In this document: positions 251-6,249 of the stretch, in pieces
How positions within the stretch are numbered: position 1 is the stretch's first letter
Layout: the number at the start of each line of letters is the position of its first letter
Source: a virus
Lineage: Duplodnaviria > Heunggongvirae > Uroviricota > Caudoviricetes
Length of the DNA: 10,245 bases
Virus record (IMG/VR): IMGVR_UViG_3300022188_000009
Direction: 5' to 3' (one strand)
Translations under genes and position numbers: made by a program
Notes under the pieces: generated by a model
Database searches by the model: none
What the model was told of the DNA's origin: nothing
What the model saw: only the letters and a program-made list of their open reading frames with translations

Positions 251-463
251 ATGAGTACCAAATCAATGTTTCATAAAGAATATTATTCTTATCTCCCTGT
301 TGCAGATAATCTAGATGATGAAGCAACAAAAGCTATATTACCAGTATTTGAAAAATATGTGGATAAAGGATACAGTCCACGTGAGGTATCTCAGATTATT
401 CAGATAGCTGTTGGTATGATAGAATGTCAAGTCATACTTGATACAAATAATAATAATAATTGA
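251..463 (+). CDS. Hypothetical protein (70 aa)
   Basis: ORF packed against the upstream gene. Ends in (AAT)5 = NNNNN (446-460), and its TGA stop lies inside the 5' arm of the 455-549 hairpin. No recognisable family. Confidence 0.55.
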   Translation: MSTKSMFHKEYYSYLPVADNLDDEATKAILPVFEKYVDKGYSPREVSQIIQIAVGMIECQVILDTNNNNN

Positions 464-549
464 GCAGTGAGAGATTTCGGTTACTTCTAATGGATAAAAG
501 CACCGAGTCTTATTTTTCTCTCAATTATTCGTTTCGTTAGTACAAGTAA
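455..549 (+). ncRNA. Structured motif RNA, candidate minimal Y RNA (copy D)
   Basis: Perfect 10-bp outer stem AATAATTGAG(455-464)/CTCAATTATT(540-549); CAGTGAG 465-471; inner stem AGATTTCGGT/ACCGAGTCT; TACTTC 482-487; TTCT 536-539. Same architecture as 5442-5521 and 5559-5635. Confidence 0.65.
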
Positions 550-612
550 TACCATGTTCGATCCGTCGTCATTGTAATATCTTAGAAAATGAAACAAAAA
601 AAATAAATTATA

Positions 613-620
613 AAGGAGGT
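613..620 (+). promoter_or_regulatory. Shine-Dalgarno site of the split csp gene
   Basis: AAGGAGGT 6 nt upstream of ATG 627. Confidence 0.85.
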
Positions 621-626
621 GTTTTA

Positions 627-668
627 ATGGCTGACGGAATCGTAAAATGGTTTAACGATAGCAAGGGT
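627..668 (+). CDS. cspA: Cold-shock domain protein, exon 1 (MADGIVKWFNDSKG)
   Basis: Strong RBS, then 14 codons matching the CspA-family N-terminus (G.VKWFN..KG). The frame hits TAG at 669-671, the first bases of the intron. The symbol is family-level only. Confidence 0.93.
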
Positions 669-974
669 TAGTTAACCAAGGCTCTTGTAAAACTGGATAA
701 ATTGCTGGAATATTCTTTCGAGAACAATCAGCAGCCAACCCGTGCAAGTAAGTATAAACGCACAACCAAGCCCAGAGGCACGGAAGGTTCAGAGACTAGT
801 CCCCGAGCGAAAGCAGTAATGGGGCCACGAACATCCAGATCTTGTAATAAACGTTTCGGAAAAGATGAATATGCAATAAAATTTCCACTCTTACAAGATA
901 AGATATAGTCCGACCTGCATATAATACATAAATTGCAGAATCATGGGATAAAGAGCCCGTGAGATAACATAATG
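669..974 (+). mobile_element. Group I self-splicing intron, 306 nt, no homing endonuclease ORF; probably subgroup IA
   Basis: 5' exon ends in U668 and the intron ends in G974. P1 AAGGGT(663-668)/GCTCTT(681-686) with U.G at the splice site; P10 AACCAAG(674-680)/TTTGGTT(975-981); P3 CTGGAT(693-698)/ATCCAG(833-838); P4 TTGCTG(702-707)/CAGCAG(729-734); P5 with a UUCG loop; R element GGTTCAGAGACTA(786-798); S element AAGATATAGTC(900-910) forming P7 GACTA/TAGTC; extra hairpin between P7 and P3' (P7.1-like); P8 ATCTTGTAA(839-847)/TTACAAGAT(891-899); P9 CTGCA/TGCAG; TCATGGG/CCCGTGA. Confidence 0.95.
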
Positions 975-1133
975 TTTGGTTTTATTCAACGTGAAGACGA
1001 AGACGATGTATTCGTTCATTTCTCTGCAATTGCAGCGGATGGTTTTAAATCTCTCGCAGAAGGCGACAAAGTTACTTTTGGTATTGAGCCTGGGGCTAAA
1101 GGCCCAGCTGCTACCAATGTAGTAAGAGTTTAG
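975..1133 (+). CDS. cspA: Cold-shock domain protein, exon 2 ([52 protein letters not shown])
   Basis: Joining 668 to 975 gives an in-frame 66-aa CspA-type protein with RNP1 KGFGFI, RNP2 VFVHFS and the C-terminal KGP.A.NV motif; TAG at 1131-1133. Confidence 0.95.
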
Positions 1134-1147
1134 AATAAACTTGTAAA

Positions 1148-1207
1148 GCAGTGACAGATATTATCAAGCTATACTTCTAGTAAGTTAGCTGGCTTGTATA
1201 TTCGTCA
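1148..1207 (+). ncRNA. Diverged copy of the GCAGTGA...TACTTC hairpin motif (copy E)
   Basis: GCAGTGA 1148-1154 and TACTTC 1172-1177. TACTTC lies 3' of a stem arm (AGCTA/TAGCT, CAAGC/GCTTG); TGAC/GTCA closes the element. It lacks the CGGT/ACCG core and the long outer stem. Confidence 0.4.
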
Positions 1208-1210
1208 TAT

Positions 1211-1247
1211 ACCCCCTACTGGTGTAATAACTGGTAGGGGGTTTTTT
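1211..1247 (+). terminator. Rho-independent terminator after the csp gene
   Basis: 12-bp stem ACCCCCTACTGG/CTGGTAGGGGGT (two G.U pairs) followed by a T run. Confidence 0.85.
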
Positions 1248-1255
1248 ATTGCACA

Positions 1256-1441
1256 ATGGGGATAGTACATATGATAAAAGAAAATGGAGTTACTGTTAGA
1301 TGTCCTAAATGTAACAGTTTAAAAGTAACTAATGTACACCCGTTTGATTATGTCAAGCAGTGTGAAAATAATAAGTGCCCTTACTATGTAAAAAACAATA
1401 AGGGCTGGAGATATCAATTCTCAACTGGAATACATAATTAG
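1256..1441 (+). CDS. Small Zn-ribbon-like hypothetical protein (CPKC...CENNKCPYY); true start may be ATG 1271
   Basis: ORF track; two Cys pairs; GGGGAT upstream of ATG 1271. Confidence 0.6.
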   Translation: MGIVHMIKENGVTVRCPKCNSLKVTNVHPFDYVKQCENNKCPYYVKNNKGWRYQFSTGIHN

Positions 1442-1453
1442 AAGGAGGTATTC

Positions 1454-1708
1454 GTGAGTACACTTAGTTACGAAGATTGTAAGGTGGGTATGCGGGTTTT
1501 ACTAACACACCCTCTCAAGAGCTACTCTATAGGGACAAATAACCCTGCTACTAATACAAAATGGGAATGTGTAGGTACTATAATTGAAAAAAGCGATCAT
1601 AATATCGATGTTGCTTGGAATAATGGACATAACAATATTTATGGTCCAAATGAGTTATCACTAGTTAAAAGTGGTATTTGTATAGACATTTGGCAAGAAA
1701 TAGGCTAA
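1454..1708 (+). CDS. Hypothetical protein (84 aa), paralog of the next gene; possibly a small SH3-like beta-barrel
   Basis: AAGGAGG 1442-1448 then GTG; shares KVLLTHP-like, NNPATNT.WEC.G.I.EK, W..G..N.Y...ELS and IDIW motifs with 1730-1972. Confidence 0.8.
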   Translation: MSTLSYEDCKVGMRVLLTHPLKSYSIGTNNPATNTKWECVGTIIEKSDHNIDVAWNNGHNNIYGPNELSLVKSGICIDIWQEIG

Positions 1709-1729
1709 TAAACAGTAAAGGAGGTATTG

Positions 1730-1972
1730 GTGGGAAGGCTTAGTTGTAAAGAGTGTAAAATAGGTATGAAAGTGTTATTAACACATCCAGATAATTGCTA
1801 CGAAATAGGACCGAATAACCCTGCTACTAATACAGAATGGGAATGTACTGGTATTATAGTTGAGAAAGGTAGTCAAAGTATCGGAGTTACTTGGAGTAAA
1901 GGATACCGTAATATGTATAGAGGTGGTGAATTATCTGCTGCTGAAAATGGTTCCTATATTGATATTTGGTAA
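1730..1972 (+). CDS. Hypothetical protein, tandem paralog of 1454-1708
   Basis: AAGGAGG 1718-1724. GTG 1730 gives the same 5-nt spacing as the paralog (the track starts at TTG 1727). Clear similarity along the whole length. Confidence 0.8.
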   Translation: MGRLSCKECKIGMKVLLTHPDNCYEIGPNNPATNTEWECTGIIVEKGSQSIGVTWSKGYRNMYRGGELSAAENGSYIDIW

Positions 1973-2019
1973 GACATAGATTAATAAATAACTAAATAAA
2001 CTATAGAAAGGAGGACTAT

Positions 2020-2250
2020 ATGTTAGAATACCAAGACGCTAAAGCAGTTATTAGTCACACAGATAGTACTGGTAAAGAATTAGGACTTTTTACTACATGG
2101 CGTGGGGATTTTATCGAAGAAATACTCAAAGGAGGCAACTGCCTTAACTCAGTAAAATCTGGAGATAAAGTTATTATCACAATCGAGATCAATAAGATTT
2201 CAAAAGGCAATATTAATCAGATCGATGATGCTACTACAGTCGGTTGTTAA
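2020..2250 (+). CDS. Hypothetical protein (76 aa)
   Basis: AAAGGAGG RBS directly upstream of ATG; no recognisable family. Confidence 0.7.
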   Translation: MLEYQDAKAVISHTDSTGKELGLFTTWRGDFIEEILKGGNCLNSVKSGDKVIITIEINKISKGNINQIDDATTVGC

Positions 2251-2275
2251 AATCTCTCATAAGGAGGAGTGAACC

Positions 2276-3895
2276 ATGGCTATTAATAGTAAAAGAGTAA
2301 TCCCATTGAAATTTGATAAAATGAAAGAGGAAGCTCATGTAAACTTTATGGGCGGACCTTCATATGATGTTAAATCCCCTCTGTTGAGGCTTATATGCAT
2401 GTCAGCGTCGTCTTTCTTCGGAGAACCGTCTTACTATAAGGGTATGCGGTCTGAACGTAAAAAACAGCATTTATTGGTTTCTCATAAACAATTACCATAC
2501 GTTGAGCGAAAACATATCCGCGAAGTACTTAATGCAATTGATGATTATGGGTGGAGAAATCTTTCCACGGCCGAATCAATGGAGAAAGCAGTTATGGAAG
2601 CTTTGGACTATGACCCTGAAGCCACTCTCCAGTGGGCAGTGACATTACGACGTGATGAGTTTATACGTACTACACCGCAAGTAATACTTGTTATGGCCGC
2701 AAATCATCCAAAAGTAAAAGGTACTGGGCTGATTCGAAAATATGCCCCTGGAGTTATTGCCAGAATGGATGAGCCTGCTGTACAGCTTGCATACCAGCTT
2801 GATAGGTTTGGAAAACCGATCCCTAATGCTCTTAAAAGGGCTTGGGCAGATGCGTTCAATAAAGCAGGAGAGTATCAGTTATCAAAATACCGTATGGAAA
2901 ATCGTATTGTGAAAACGGTTGACGTAGTAAATATGGCTTTTGGAAAAGGTGCGTATGGATTTGAAAATGCTGTTGGTAAACTCGTGCGTAATGAGCTATC
3001 TCTCGGTGATGGTTACCAGACATGGGAGTCAATCCGTTCTGGTGGGGGTTCGTGGGAAGAAGCTATTAAAGTGATGGGGCACATGGCTTTACTTCGTAAT
3101 ATTCGTAACCTTGTTAGTGCTAAAGCTCCCACTGAACTGTGGTTGAAAAAGCTCGTTGCTACTGCTGCCGGTGGTAAACAACTTCCATTTCGTTACTTAT
3201 CTGCACATAATGCAAATAAAGAAGCACCTGGACACGTTTTGGACGCTATCGAAGAGTGTATGGAGATTTCCGTAGGTAATTTGCCAACTCTTAATGGACG
3301 TTCTCTTATACTGACAGATAATTCTGGCTCTACTCACGGAGGCTCTGTGTCAGAGTTAAGTACGATGAGTGTAGCTCAAATTGGAAACCTTATGGGAGTA
3401 CTTACTGGTATGGTTTCAGATGAAGGTGTAATGGGTATATTCGGTGATAAACTTGAGTACTTACCTGTTCGTAAAAAAGCCTCTATCATGGATCAAACTA
3501 ATGAGGCCACTCGTATTGGTAAGAACATTGGTGGAGGTACTGAAAATGGTGTGTGGTTAGCTCTTGATGATGCGATCCGAAATAAAAAGCATTGGGATAA
3601 TATCTTTATTTATTCAGATATGCAGGCAGGCCATGGTGGATTGTATGGAAAAAATCCTGATAACTACCGAAAATATTGCCTTGGTACCAGGTATATTGAT
3701 GTGCCTTTACTTATCCATGATTATCGGGCGAAAGTAAATTCGAAAGTTAACGTATTTCTTGTTCAGACTGCTGGGTATGAAGACACCTTGCTACCTGAGT
3801 ATTACGACCGTACGTACATCATTGGTGGTTGGTCTGGAAATATTCTCAAGTTTGCGAAGAGGATGATTGACACCGCAGATCAATTTTTACAGTAG
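2276..3895 (+). CDS. rsr: Ro60/TROVE-domain RNA-binding protein with C-terminal vWA domain (Rsr-like), 539 aa
   Basis: AAGGAGG RBS. TROVE-type motifs (N-terminal NFMGG, HMALLRNIRNL, KQLPFRYLSAH), then a vWA MIDAS DxSxS (LTDNSGS), GGGT and IFIYSDMQ. Length typical of Ro60 orthologs. Confidence 0.92.
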   Translation: MAINSKRVIPLKFDKMKEEAHVNFMGGPSYDVKSPLLRLICMSASSFFGEPSYYKGMRSERKKQHLLVSHKQLPYVERKHIREVLNAIDDYGWRNLSTAESMEKAVMEALDYDPEATLQWAVTLRRDEFIRTTPQVILVMAANHPKVKGTGLIRKYAPGVIARMDEPAVQLAYQLDRFGKPIPNALKRAWADAFNKAGEYQLSKYRMENRIVKTVDVVNMAFGKGAYGFENAVGKLVRNELSLGDGYQTWESIRSGGGSWEEAIKVMGHMALLRNIRNLVSAKAPTELWLKKLVATAAGGKQLPFRYLSAHNANKEAPGHVLDAIEECMEISVGNLPTLNGRSLILTDNSGSTHGGSVSELSTMSVAQIGNLMGVLTGMVSDEGVMGIFGDKLEYLPVRKKASIMDQTNEATRIGKNIGGGTENGVWLALDDAIRNKKHWDNIFIYSDMQAGHGGLYGKNPDNYRKYCLGTRYIDVPLLIHDYRAKVNSKVNVFLVQTAGYEDTLLPEYYDRTYIIGGWSGNILKFAKRMIDTADQFLQ

Positions 3896-3902
3896 GAATA
3901 AT

Positions 3903-3933
3903 GGGGCTGTGGGTTCCTCAGTCCCTTTATCTT
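3903..3933 (+). terminator. Probable intrinsic terminator after the TROVE gene
   Basis: GGGGCTG(3903-3909)/CAGTCCC(3919-3925) stem followed by TTTATCTT, 7 nt after the stop codon. Confidence 0.6.
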
Positions 3934-4696
3934 ATGCAAAATTGAAGGTTGTGGAGGGTTTTGAGGCGGACTTTGAAACCGTTGTGAAATCCAAATGGTT
4001 ACTCAGGAGGGAACAGAAACTTTAAGTAATGATGAGTAGTATGCTTGCGTTTCAACGCGGAGGAAGGGAAGGGTATTCAGGACATTTCGACCTGAAGAAT
4101 TAGCATTCGAAACTTGTAACTTAAGAGTTCTCTCGGTAACTGTATATTATATGTGGCAAATCATTAGACAACAAGTGACTACTTTACCACTAAGCTACAA
4201 TGTTATTAACGTATGTATATGTGTGTAAAACTTCAATGGGTTTGAGCATTTATGGAAATTTAATTTTTTATTATGTTTATTCGGAGATCAATATAATTAT
4301 ATTAAATTAATAAATTTACTTGTGAACGCAAAAGAAATTCGTATCAGTGAAACATATGTACAGCGTAATATATGAGTAGTTTGAGGTATCAGAAAGCGAT
4401 GTCGATACCTGATATTTTATATTAGGGATGGTTTGTAAAATAACTACCAGATAGCATAGACAAGGGATAATGCGTCTGATGAGCGTAATCATTTTGTAAT
4501 TAAGTGCCTTCTGTGGGTTTCTTGTCAGTTCCTGGCCCACTTTTTAATAGAAAGACCGGGGTACCCCTTGGTCAATCTGATATTTACATAAAAGGGAAAC
4601 TGTCTGATTACTTGATGATTTTTGTTGGAAAAAGCGTGAGTTCGAATCTCGGCAATGGTAGAATAAATTTTTTCACATATGTAATGTACGCCAAAA

Positions 4697-4855
4697 TGTG
4701 GAGTATGTCAGAGCATTTGAGGGTAAAACATTTCAGTAGACTAAAACCGGAAAATCCACCAACAAGAGATGCCGGACTACTGGGGCCTGAAAAGTAAGTT
4801 CTCAAGGATGGGGCATGGCTATTTACAGATCAGGGTTCGAATCCCTGCTCCACTA
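4697..4855 (+). ncRNA. tRNA-like structured RNA with a large domain in place of the D-loop and no anticodon arm
   Basis: Perfect T-arm CAGGG-TTCGAAT-CCCTG (4831-4847) followed directly by CTCCAC (4848-4853), which pairs with GTGGAG (4698-4703). T8/A9, then D-stem TGTC(4706-4709)/GGCA(4812-4815) and A14/G15. No CCA is encoded. Confidence 0.5.
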
Positions 4856-4872
4856 AAGAAGGAGTAAGAAGT

Positions 4873-5175
4873 ATGAGTCAAGAAAAATATATTACCGGCA
4901 CCGGACAAGTAATTTCTGTACATACTGCAGATAAATGTGCCGGCAGACATTGTGTTATACATAACCCGTCAAATCATTTAATGAAAGATTGGCCTACTCA
5001 TTGGAGGGCAGACAGGGGTATAATGGAAAGAATGTGTTCTTGTGGTGTAGGTCATCCAGATCCGGACGACTTAGCTTACAAGAAAGCTGTTGCAGAAAGA
5101 GATGGAAAGAAATATTATGATACTGGTATACATGGTTGTTGTGGTTGTTGCATTGGTAAGAAAGCACCTGGGTAG
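4873..5175 (+). CDS. Cys/His-rich hypothetical protein (100 aa), probable metal binder
   Basis: AAGGAG RBS; motifs C...C..H.P..H, C.CGVGHPDPD and HGCCGCC. The stop codon overlaps the tRNA 5' end. Confidence 0.8.
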   Translation: MSQEKYITGTGQVISVHTADKCAGRHCVIHNPSNHLMKDWPTHWRADRGIMERMCSCGVGHPDPDDLAYKKAVAERDGKKYYDTGIHGCCGCCIGKKAPG

Positions 5176-5253
5176 GTGTGCCGAATGGTGAAGGCAGCGG
5201 ACTGTAAATTCGTGACAATAGAAACGTTGGAGGTTCGAATCCTCCCCCGCCCG
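5170..5253 (+). tRNA. tRNA-Tyr (anticodon GTA), class II; CCA not encoded
   Basis: Acceptor GGGTAGG/CCCGCCC (one A-C mismatch); D-arm TGCC-GAATGGTGAA-GGCA; anticodon arm GCGGA-CTGTAAA-TTCGT (GTA 5204-5206); 15-nt variable region; T-arm GGAGG-TTCGAAT-CCTCC; G at the discriminator. Confidence 0.8.
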
Positions 5254-5441
5254 CACGGCGTTCAAAATAGAATGCTATGACAGGCCCTGGTTATGGATTT
5301 TTAATACACATACTAGGGCCAATTGTTTTTTGCCACGTATGAAAAGGCGTGGCACAATACATAATATCTTTTTATAAGTTGTTTGTTGTATTACCTCCTT
5401 TTGAACAGGTAAGTATGTCTGTCTCGGCCATGCTTACCACA

Positions 5442-5521
5442 AGGGCGAAGTGAAGGAAACGGTTACTTCATTAGACATTTAATCTAAATAGATCATCTAC
5501 CGTCTCCAATTTTCTCGCCTT
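5442..5521 (+). ncRNA. Structured motif RNA, candidate minimal Y RNA (copy A)
   Basis: Outer stem GGCGA(5444-5448)/TCGCC(5515-5519) extended by G.U and A-U pairs; AAGTGAA; inner stem GGAAACGGT(5455-5463)/ACCGTCTCC(5499-5507); TACTTC 5464-5469; internal hairpin TTAGA-7nt-TCTAA; TTCT. Confidence 0.65.
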
Positions 5522-5558
5522 ACAAGTTTAACAAGTACAGAAGAGTACTTATATTACC

Positions 5559-5635
5559 TTTATAGACGCAGTGAGCTACGCGGTTACTTCATTTTTGGTA
5601 TGATAACACACCGCATGCGTGTTCTCGTCTATAAA
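5559..5635 (+). ncRNA. Structured motif RNA, candidate minimal Y RNA (copy B)
   Basis: Perfect 10-bp outer stem TTTATAGACG(5559-5568)/CGTCTATAAA(5626-5635); CAGTGAG; GCGGT(5580-5584)/ACCGC(5610-5614); TACTTC 5585-5590; TTCT 5622-5625. Confidence 0.7.
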
Positions 5636-5653: not shown

Positions 5654-5745
5654 GAAAAGGTTCGCGGTTTAAATATTCTCACCAATCGGTTGCTTAGTCC
5701 GGCTAATATGGACTCGGGGTACCGCACCCGTTATGGAACCTTTTC
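5654..5745 (+). ncRNA. Structured RNA, possibly a diverged third member of the tandem cluster (copy C)
   Basis: Perfect 10-bp outer stem GAAAAGGTTC/GAACCTTTTC; CGGTTGCTT (5687-5695) resembles CGGTTACTT; hairpin AGTCC/GGACT; ACCG at 5721-5724. No CAGTGA. Confidence 0.5.
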
Positions 5746-5766
5746 GAATTTAGATAGGAGGACGTG

Positions 5767-6249
5767 ATGGTCAAAACCAAAGTAGGTTTCGATTTTCATG
5801 GAGTAATTGATCAAGAACCAAACTTCTTCGCATTTTTATCTTATACATTAAGAACTGAAGGACATGAGGTACATATTATAACTGGTCAAGAACTTTGTGA
5901 TGAGCTGTTTACCAAACTCAACAAACACAACATCGAATACACACGGATTTTTTCAATCACCTCCTATCACAAAAAGATAGGAACATACATCACATACAAG
6001 GATGGTGATAAGACACAACCTCTAATTGCTCCCCCAATATGGGATAAAACAAAAGCAAATTATGCAGCCGAACAAGGACTGCATTTTCATATAGATAATT
6101 CTAAAAATTATGAAGAGTATTTTAAAGACATTACAACACAATACCTCCTATATACGCCCGAATTACGGGCATTACTGTTTCAGCTGATGGGCTGGTCTGA
6201 TCGGTTTAGTTCTAAATTATTATCGATCTTAAGACCTATATACAAATAA
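5767..6249 (+). CDS. HAD-superfamily-like phosphatase/nucleotidase with atypical motifs
   Basis: GGAGG RBS (the track starts at GTG 5764; ATG 5767 fits the RBS better). Motif I-like VGFDFHGVID, motif II-like HIITG, motif III Lys (WDKTKA) and motif IV-like HIDN. Confidence 0.65.
   Translation: MVKTKVGFDFHGVIDQEPNFFAFLSYTLRTEGHEVHIITGQELCDELFTKLNKHNIEYTRIFSITSYHKKIGTYITYKDGDKTQPLIAPPIWDKTKANYAAEQGLHFHIDNSKNYEEYFKDITTQYLLYTPELRALLFQLMGWSDRFSSKLLSILRPIYK

Follow-up and report, generated by a model that had tools for sequence, protein, structure and literature searches.

What are the three short hairpin elements that stand around a Ro60 gene in a virus genome, and are they partners of the protein? 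The DNA analyzed here, called the window throughout, is a 10,245-nt stretch of a Caudoviricetes virus (IMG/VR virus record IMGVR_UViG_3300022188_000009) that encodes a Ro60/TROVE protein. An earlier note on this DNA had proposed that three elements near the gene are multicopy Ro60 partner RNAs that lack a tRNA-like domain. That proposal is supported by the co-location of the elements with Ro60 on the same strand and by the existence of longer, YrlA-like family members. Comparative sequence analysis demonstrates an RNA family of modular build, with strong covariation, a link to Ro60 genes, and long forms that are homologous to YrlA. We conclude that the three elements in the window are very probably small RNA genes belonging to a phage-specific branch of the Y RNAs (YrlA/YrlB type), the RNA partners of Ro60.

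A covarying RNA family with a constant handle

The three elements described earlier are all present, share one layout, and lie on the + strand, as does the Ro60 gene (2276..3895, +; 539 aa) that encodes the presumed protein partner. One copy is 1.75 kb upstream of this gene and the other two are 1.55 to 1.66 kb downstream, as in the Y RNAs of bacteria and phages, which lie no more than about 4 kb from a Ro60/TROVE gene and share its strand. On the 5' side of the common scaffold, an outer stem (P1) of 6 to 10 bp is followed by one bulged base (mostly U or C) and then by two pairs between AGUGA and UUCU, one A-U and one G-C. Next come an internal loop, in which UGA on the 5' strand faces mostly U, an inner stem (P2) of about 8 bp that ends in CGG/CCG, the word UUACUUC, and a variable head. 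The 3' side consists of ACA, the 3' strand of P2, UUCU, and the 3' strand of P1. We refer to the constant part of this scaffold as the handle. The G-(C/A) that had been listed before AGTGA is really the last P1 pair and the bulged base. Heads of the window copies are 14 to 29 nt long and have no T or D arm.

Nine syntenic loci were retrieved via Ro60 homologs of 64 to 95% identity, and the AGTGA..TACTTC word pair is recurrent in them, always on the gene strand. A covariance model (CM), R1, was built from a 20-sequence alignment of relatives. R1 matches exactly three copies in the window, with E values of 1e-11 to 1e-13, and none further with filters off. It matches 35 copies in the nine syntenic loci, all of them on the Ro60 strand, and a total of 71 copies across 25 phage loci.

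Gene 1 (455..529, +; 75 nt; R1 score 56.4 bits, E about 1e-11) has P1 at 455-464 paired with 520-529, a bulged C465, AGUGA at 466-470, the 5' strand of P2 at 471-480, UUACUUC at 481-487, and a short hairpin as its head. The 5' strand of its P1 overlaps the stop codon of the open reading frame (ORF) at 251-463, and its ortholog in a related locus (L003:4218-4288) is also matched by R1. This element had been placed at 455-549; the start stands, but the end does not, as the structure closes at 529. Gene 2 (5442..5521, +; 80 nt; 63.9 bits, E about 4e-13) has P1 at 5442-5447 paired with 5516-5521, AGUGA at 5449-5453, and UUACUUC at 5463-5469. Its head is an anticodon-arm-like hairpin with a 5-bp stem and the 7-nt loop CAUUUAA, and in its orthologs (L003, L004, L006, L007, L008, and L010) the stem is retained and the loop triplet is altered. 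Gene 3 (5559..5635, +; 77 nt; 62 bits, E about 1e-12) has P1 at 5559-5568 paired with 5626-5635, a bulged C5569, AGUGA at 5570-5574, and UUACUUC at 5584-5590; in a single-sequence fold its head is one hairpin of 5 bp with a 7-nt loop that makes use of the UUCA of the invariant word. The outer stems, earlier put at 10, about 7, and 10 bp, do pair as claimed, although the second is better described as 6 to 7 bp.

The AGTGA..TACTTC word pair occurs 5 times in the window compared with 0.15 expected, and at least 5 occurrences were found in 0 of 200 shuffles. Two of these occurrences, one at 1150-1177 and the other within the Ro60 ORF at 3070-3095, were rejected as members, as they are CM negative even with filters off. 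When the three elements are folded as single sequences, the z values (-1.0, -3.5, and -2.8) are only modestly better than those of shuffles, and the support for structure is therefore mainly comparative. Compensatory changes are found in 12 of the 18 predicted pairs in an alignment of 20 short copies. In the 71-copy set, 87.8% of the cells are paired versus 61.9% in the shuffled set, and the covariation score is 0.653 versus 0.177 for the shuffled set and 0.08 to 0.15 for slid controls. Four copies that carry GGUG in place of AGUG also carry UUCC in place of UUCU, which is a compensated A-to-G/U-to-C change. Some 20 positions of the handle show little or no variation, among them the G-U-G of AGUGA and the whole of UACUUC, and they make up two blocks, bulge-AGUGA/UUCU and CGG-UUACUUC. 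The covariation and the compensated pairs support the earlier suggestion that selection acts on the structure of these RNAs. Two other kinds of explanation for the conserved words were discarded. They are not promoter boxes, since the spacing between them varies from 10 to 17 nt, and self-cleaving ribozyme, K-turn, and T-loop readings of AGUGA/UACUUC were dropped because there is no Rfam ribozyme match and the words lie within a covarying stem context.

The total length of the RNAs across the family is 64 to 183 nt, with a constant handle and variable heads of three kinds. The first kind is one short hairpin, often built with the UUCA of the invariant word. The second is a distinct 5-bp stem capped by a 7-nt loop of anticodon form (C/A-U-NNN-A-A/C), usually with a GC-rich hairpin next to it. 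Central triplets of this kind differ between orthologs on a constant stem (GCU, UGU, GUU, UCU, and CAU, with UUU in the window), and the triplet flanks are retained (C-U before and A-A after). The third kind is a complete tRNA-like body with permuted parts (V arm, T arm, closed acceptor-like stem, and D arm, in that order); members with such a body are L010:16405-16551, L034:177-311, L031:4637-4771, and L122:1979-2115. Anticodon-loop-like 7-nt hairpins number 33 in the heads versus 4.4 in shuffled heads, and T-loops number 14 versus 0.12. The genes form arrays of 3 to 8 copies within 20 kb, including tandem runs of 3 to 5 copies with spacers of only 6 to 20 nt, and short and long forms occur together in most arrays. 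Many members are directly preceded by tRNA 3' ends, and some have no promoter of their own; members that directly follow tRNA genes would be released by tRNA processing.

Linkage to Ro60 genes and resemblance to Y RNAs

The link to Ro60 was assessed with a DNA-pattern scan of IMG/VR in which Ro60 was ignored. After filtering with R1, about 18 contigs were positive, 14 of which could be searched for proteins. Thirteen of these 14 encode a Ro60 homolog (28 to 73% identity), and the sole RNA-positive contig that does not is a 27-kb fragment rated 26% complete. None of 5 pattern-only control contigs (116 to 170 kb) encodes a Ro60 homolog. When R1 was run over four whole phage genomes from IMG/VR (122 to 163 kb), all 17 matches were 0 to 9 kb from Ro60 and on the same strand, and in genomes G001, G002, and G004 the copies are directly upstream of Ro60 and nowhere else in the genome. 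The handle is retained across Ro60 proteins that are only 28 to 32% identical. The earlier note had suggested building a CM from the copies and comparing its matches with TROVE genes, and the distribution of the motif is indeed tied to these genes. A strict 23-nt pattern also gave two loci, L001 and L002, which are chance matches and were rejected by the CM. Among GenBank phages, megablast found nothing that matches the window, and an IMG/VR search for related loci with a single Ro60 protein found none.

The product of the Ro60 gene in the window matches Pfam TROVE (PF05731) with 29.2 bits (cutoff, 23; E 7e-7), is 41% identical to gp540 of Bacillus phage G, an "RNA-binding protein," and has a 55%-identical homolog annotated in its source as "60 kDa SS-A/Ro ribonucleoprotein." Among solved structures, the best match to the window protein is the Ro60 of Thermus phage phiLo (9KOP/9L5Y; E 3e-10; residues 112-376), a protein that binds two short hairpin Y-like RNAs (Yrl1/Yrl2) encoded upstream of it (PMC12135203). 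In the alignment of the two proteins, the RNA-contact helix motif ALKKA of phiLo is ALKRA in the window Ro60, with K and R standing where phiLo has K141 and K142.

YrlA (Chen et al. 2014, PMC4201824) is a tRNA-mimicking Y RNA of bacterial Rsr/Ro60 and of mycobacteriophages, with permuted V, T, acceptor-like, and D arms. Long family members share this arm set and its permuted order with YrlA (RF02553). They are also alike in being encoded a few kb from Ro60 on the same strand and in having a long stem, with an internal loop, that pairs the two ends. A conserved YUAY opens the V loop in YrlA (PMC4201824), and the UUAC of the family stands at this position, after the inner stem. Long members score 28 to 44 bits with the Rfam YrlA model (best, 43.7; E down to 1e-6). 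In contrast with YrlA, the family has a bulged base and AGUGA in place of GNCGAA(N)G, its UACUUC is invariant, the window copies are without a tRNA-like body, and there are up to 6 to 8 copies per locus rather than the approximately 2 reported. Because long relatives with the same handle have the YrlA body, we regard the window RNAs as probable head-reduced members of a divergent YrlA-like family. A cmscan alignment of a long member with YrlA put P2 on the first stem of YrlA with several nonstandard pairs, and it was not used to map the Ro contact.

Short hairpin Y RNAs without a tRNA-like domain have been described before, namely, YrlB of Salmonella and M. smegmatis and Yrn2 of D. radiodurans (PMC4201824). 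Like these and like Yrl1/Yrl2 of phiLo, the window elements are small stem/internal-loop/stem RNAs beside Ro60 that lack a tRNA-like domain and belong to a family in which they coexist with other Y RNAs. However, the published RNAs are defined by CGAA, while the window family has another conserved handle, and they have pyrimidine-rich loops, while the window family has predicted, ordered anticodon-arm-like hairpins. The novelty claimed in the earlier note was too strong (PMC4201824, PMC12135203), since a phage or bacterial Ro60 with several Y RNAs, short ones included, is a known kind of system. What sets the present family apart is the distinct conserved handle that is undetected by the Rfam YrlA model, the large arrays, and the anticodon-arm-like heads with a changing triplet. 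Our literature search found no published description of this handle, although such an absence is weak evidence.

Two more distant comparisons were made. In metazoan Y RNAs, as in the Xenopus Ro-Y RNA structure, the Ro-binding part is a terminal helix whose 5' strand has one bulged pyrimidine, with two pairs and then an internal loop beyond the bulge, an arrangement that the handle may share. Metazoan Y RNAs (RF00019) also resemble the family in having several paralogs per genome and a variable remainder beyond the Ro-binding part, but the window elements have no sequence similarity to them and no Rfam match. The Class I RNAs of dictyostelids have a short terminal stem, a conserved single-stranded word of about 11 nt, and a variable remainder, with T, C, C, A, and A near universal at positions 3, 6, 9, 10, and 11 of the word (PMC7919456). 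In the family, counted from the GG of GGUUACUUCA, position 3 is U, positions 6 and 9 are C, and position 10 is A. This likeness to the published description comes down to four letters in a register picked for the comparison, which is too weak a match to build on; Class I RNAs have no P1, bulge, or UGA loop, and the window elements have no Rfam match.

Several points weigh against the assignment of these elements to the Y RNAs. The short members are unmatched by the Rfam YrlA model, and a scan of the window with it at E values of ≤1 was empty, so that the YrlA-model check suggested earlier gave nothing for the window copies and gave matches below threshold for longer relatives with the same handle; no member reaches the RF02553 gathering score of 69 bits. 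Of 75 copies, only 2 carry the published Ro-contact motif GNCGAA(N)G, one of them in the window at 5444-5450, and 4 carry CGAA. In the window Ro60, the position of phiLo R137 is occupied by Pro. The co-occurrence sample is small (14 + 5 contigs). Finally, the discovery pattern fixed part of the handle, so that the invariance of AGUGA/CGGUUACUUC is partly built in for direct matches; array neighbors found by R1 alone keep the same invariant positions. As to the rarity of the published motif, either this branch of Ro60 reads a different handle or the contact is mainly with the shape of the RNA (the bulged helix) and its backbone. The phiLo cryo-electron microscopy data suggest shape/backbone contact with RNA (PMC12135203).

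The same rarity of the published motif would also suit a different explanation, that the handle is read by some other host or phage factor on tRNA operon transcripts, as a processing or stability element, and that proximity to Ro60 is a by-product of shared tRNA/RNA-repair islands. Many copies abut tRNA genes, some of them promoterless, and the clade locus also has a CCA-adding enzyme, an RNA ligase, and Csp. Nevertheless, we consider this explanation unlikely. None of 5 near-complete genomes that have both the RNA and Ro60 encodes the CCA-adding enzyme, and 1 of them encodes a PF09414 RNA ligase, at a distance of 40 kb; Ro60 is the only constant neighbor of the RNA family. The restriction of the copies in G001, G002, and G004 to the position directly upstream of Ro60, within 122 to 163 kb of sequence, and the lack of matches in tRNA-rich control contigs without Ro60 likewise speak against an element of tRNA operons.

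It is very unlikely that the elements are cis-acting parts of mRNAs, that is, 5' leaders or 3' trailers that control or stabilize neighbors such as csp or the ORF at 5764. Such a role would accommodate the end of element 1 at 98 nt before the csp start, the motif-bearing hairpin after the csp stop, and the lack of terminators following elements 2 and 3. However, the neighbors vary from phage to phage while the handle is constant, and members stand in tandem arrays of 3 to 5 copies with 6- to 20-nt spacers. In addition, several copies have their own promoter-like site 3 to 9 nt before P1, and closed 5'/3' stems are typical of stand-alone small RNAs. Most improbable of all is that the elements are decaying YrlA or tRNA remnants (head-deleted pseudogenes) with no present function, for although the window copies are without the tRNA-like body of their longer relatives and a decayed-looking copy lies at 1139-1207, both stems of the short copies have been preserved by compensatory changes, some 20 handle positions do not vary even where the Ro60 proteins are only 28 to 32% identical, short and long forms coexist in most arrays, and the ordered head hairpins of 5 bp with 7-nt loops are far more numerous than in shuffled heads.

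Other features of the window and of related loci

The hairpin at 1139..1207 (+), which contains AGTGA and TACTTC, lies between the csp stop and a strong terminator at 1211-1242. It has no P1, is unmatched by R1 with filters off, and is not counted as a family member. It stands at the position of true post-csp members in two related loci (L006:2565-2705 and L007:398-537) and may be a decayed relative of the family or a 3' untranslated region element. The csp gene itself (627-1133, +) contains a group I intron (631-930; Rfam RF00028, 54.3 bits) that interrupts it, whereas the 66-aa CSD gene at the csp position in L004, L006, L007, L008, L010, and L011 is uninterrupted.

A sigma-70-like promoter (TTAACA, 16 nt, TATATT; 5528..5555, +), identified as a pattern match, ends 3 nt before P1 of gene 3. 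A similar promoter (TTGACA, 16 to 17 nt, TAtAnT, 3 to 9 nt to P1) precedes orthologs and other members of the family at L004:14756, L008:12863, L004:4102, and L017:5480. Counts of the promoter pattern over the whole window are equal to those in shuffles. The 16-nt spacer of the gene 3 promoter-like site (5534-5549) is a 5-bp inverted repeat that is also found at approximately L004:14728-14743 and L008:12838-12853, and its arms covary (AGTAC/GTACT versus AGCAC/GTGCT). This repeat could belong to the preceding RNA as a small 3' hairpin, or it could act as an operator. Family members are often in or beside tRNA genes, and the window has a tRNA-Tyr(GUA) gene at 5170..5254 (+), called by both ARAGORN and Rfam. 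ARAGORN calls no tRNA in L003, a 95% relative, although the tRNA-Tyr region (about 8900-8990 in L003) is otherwise conserved there.

Two other regions near the elements appear to be structured. The first is about 970 nt of noncoding sequence after Ro60 (3896-4870, +), which is alignable to L004 at 68 to 69% identity. It contains a T arm (4633-4652) that shows a compensatory change in L004 and is followed by a D-loop-like AAUGGUAGA; a tRNA-like end, with acceptor strands at 4698-4704 and 4845-4851 and a T arm at 4829-4845; and a hairpin at about 4733-4783 that covaries with L004 (CAGUAG..CUACUG versus CAGCAG..CUGCUG). Neither ARAGORN nor Rfam makes a call in this region, and when a YrlA-type member was sought there, the CM with filters off found no handle and there was no YrlA match at E values of ≤10. 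The region could be an odd tRNA-like RNA, a tmRNA-like RNA, or a large structured RNA. The second is a separate conserved structured RNA at 5654-5750 (+), after gene 3 and before the ORF at 5764-6249, which is alignable in L004:14858-14970, L008:13287-13358, and L011:16213-16275. Compensatory changes are present in 9 of its 24 predicted pairs (from 4 sequences only), and it has no Rfam match. It contains CGGUUGCUU, which is faintly like the CGGUUACUUC of the family, but its architecture differs. This RNA may serve the downstream ORF as a leader, or it may be another partner RNA.

The window also holds small ORFs and, at its 3' end, a nicotinate-nucleotide adenylyltransferase-like gene. The gene order of the clade (L004, L006, L007, L010, and L011) is a RuvB-like AAA protein, a sigma-70-like factor, a CCA-adding enzyme, csp, tRNAs, NUDIX, Ro60, an Rnl-type RNA ligase, and an NAD salvage set made up of isochorismatase-like, NAPRTase, NMNAT-like, and NAD synthase genes.

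Proposed role of the RNA set

We infer that the handle is the docking site of Ro60. The 5' and 3' ends of each RNA pair to form this conserved structure, and Ro60 would dock on it, while the variable head would engage a second factor, such that the set of RNAs would give one Ro60 several adaptors or gates. The proposal for the head is made by analogy with the Rsr-Y RNA-PNPase systems of D. radiodurans and Salmonella and with the Ro60-Yrl-PNPase system of phiLo, in which Ro60 and its Yrl RNAs bind and attenuate the host PNPase (PMC12135203). On this analogy, the most likely roles would be the steering or blocking of the host exoribonuclease (PNPase) and of tRNA-handling enzymes during infection. 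The presence of a CCA-adding enzyme, Csp, an Rnl-type RNA ligase, and tRNAs in the clade locus fits a role in RNA maintenance or repair.

A more specific reading, which we regard as speculative and unlikely, is that the anticodon-arm-like heads are programmable baits, with the Ro60 ribonucleoprotein showing mock anticodon loops to host enzymes that are directed at anticodons. If this were true, the particle would capture or misdirect tRNA-cleaving defense nucleases or modification enzymes, and the array would be an RNA-based counterdefense repertoire rather than a generic RNA quality-control cofactor.

Particles of Ro60 and Y RNA are conserved from bacteria to humans. This family provides dozens of natural constructs, each of a handle with an exchangeable head, in which one handle is kept across Ro60 proteins that are about 30% identical. 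Two questions are thereby made testable, namely, which handle nucleotides are read by Ro60, since these are not the published CGAA, and what each head recruits. The Rfam YrlA model misses a large phage branch; therefore, phage Y RNAs are underannotated, and some of them may pass as odd tRNAs or as repeats.

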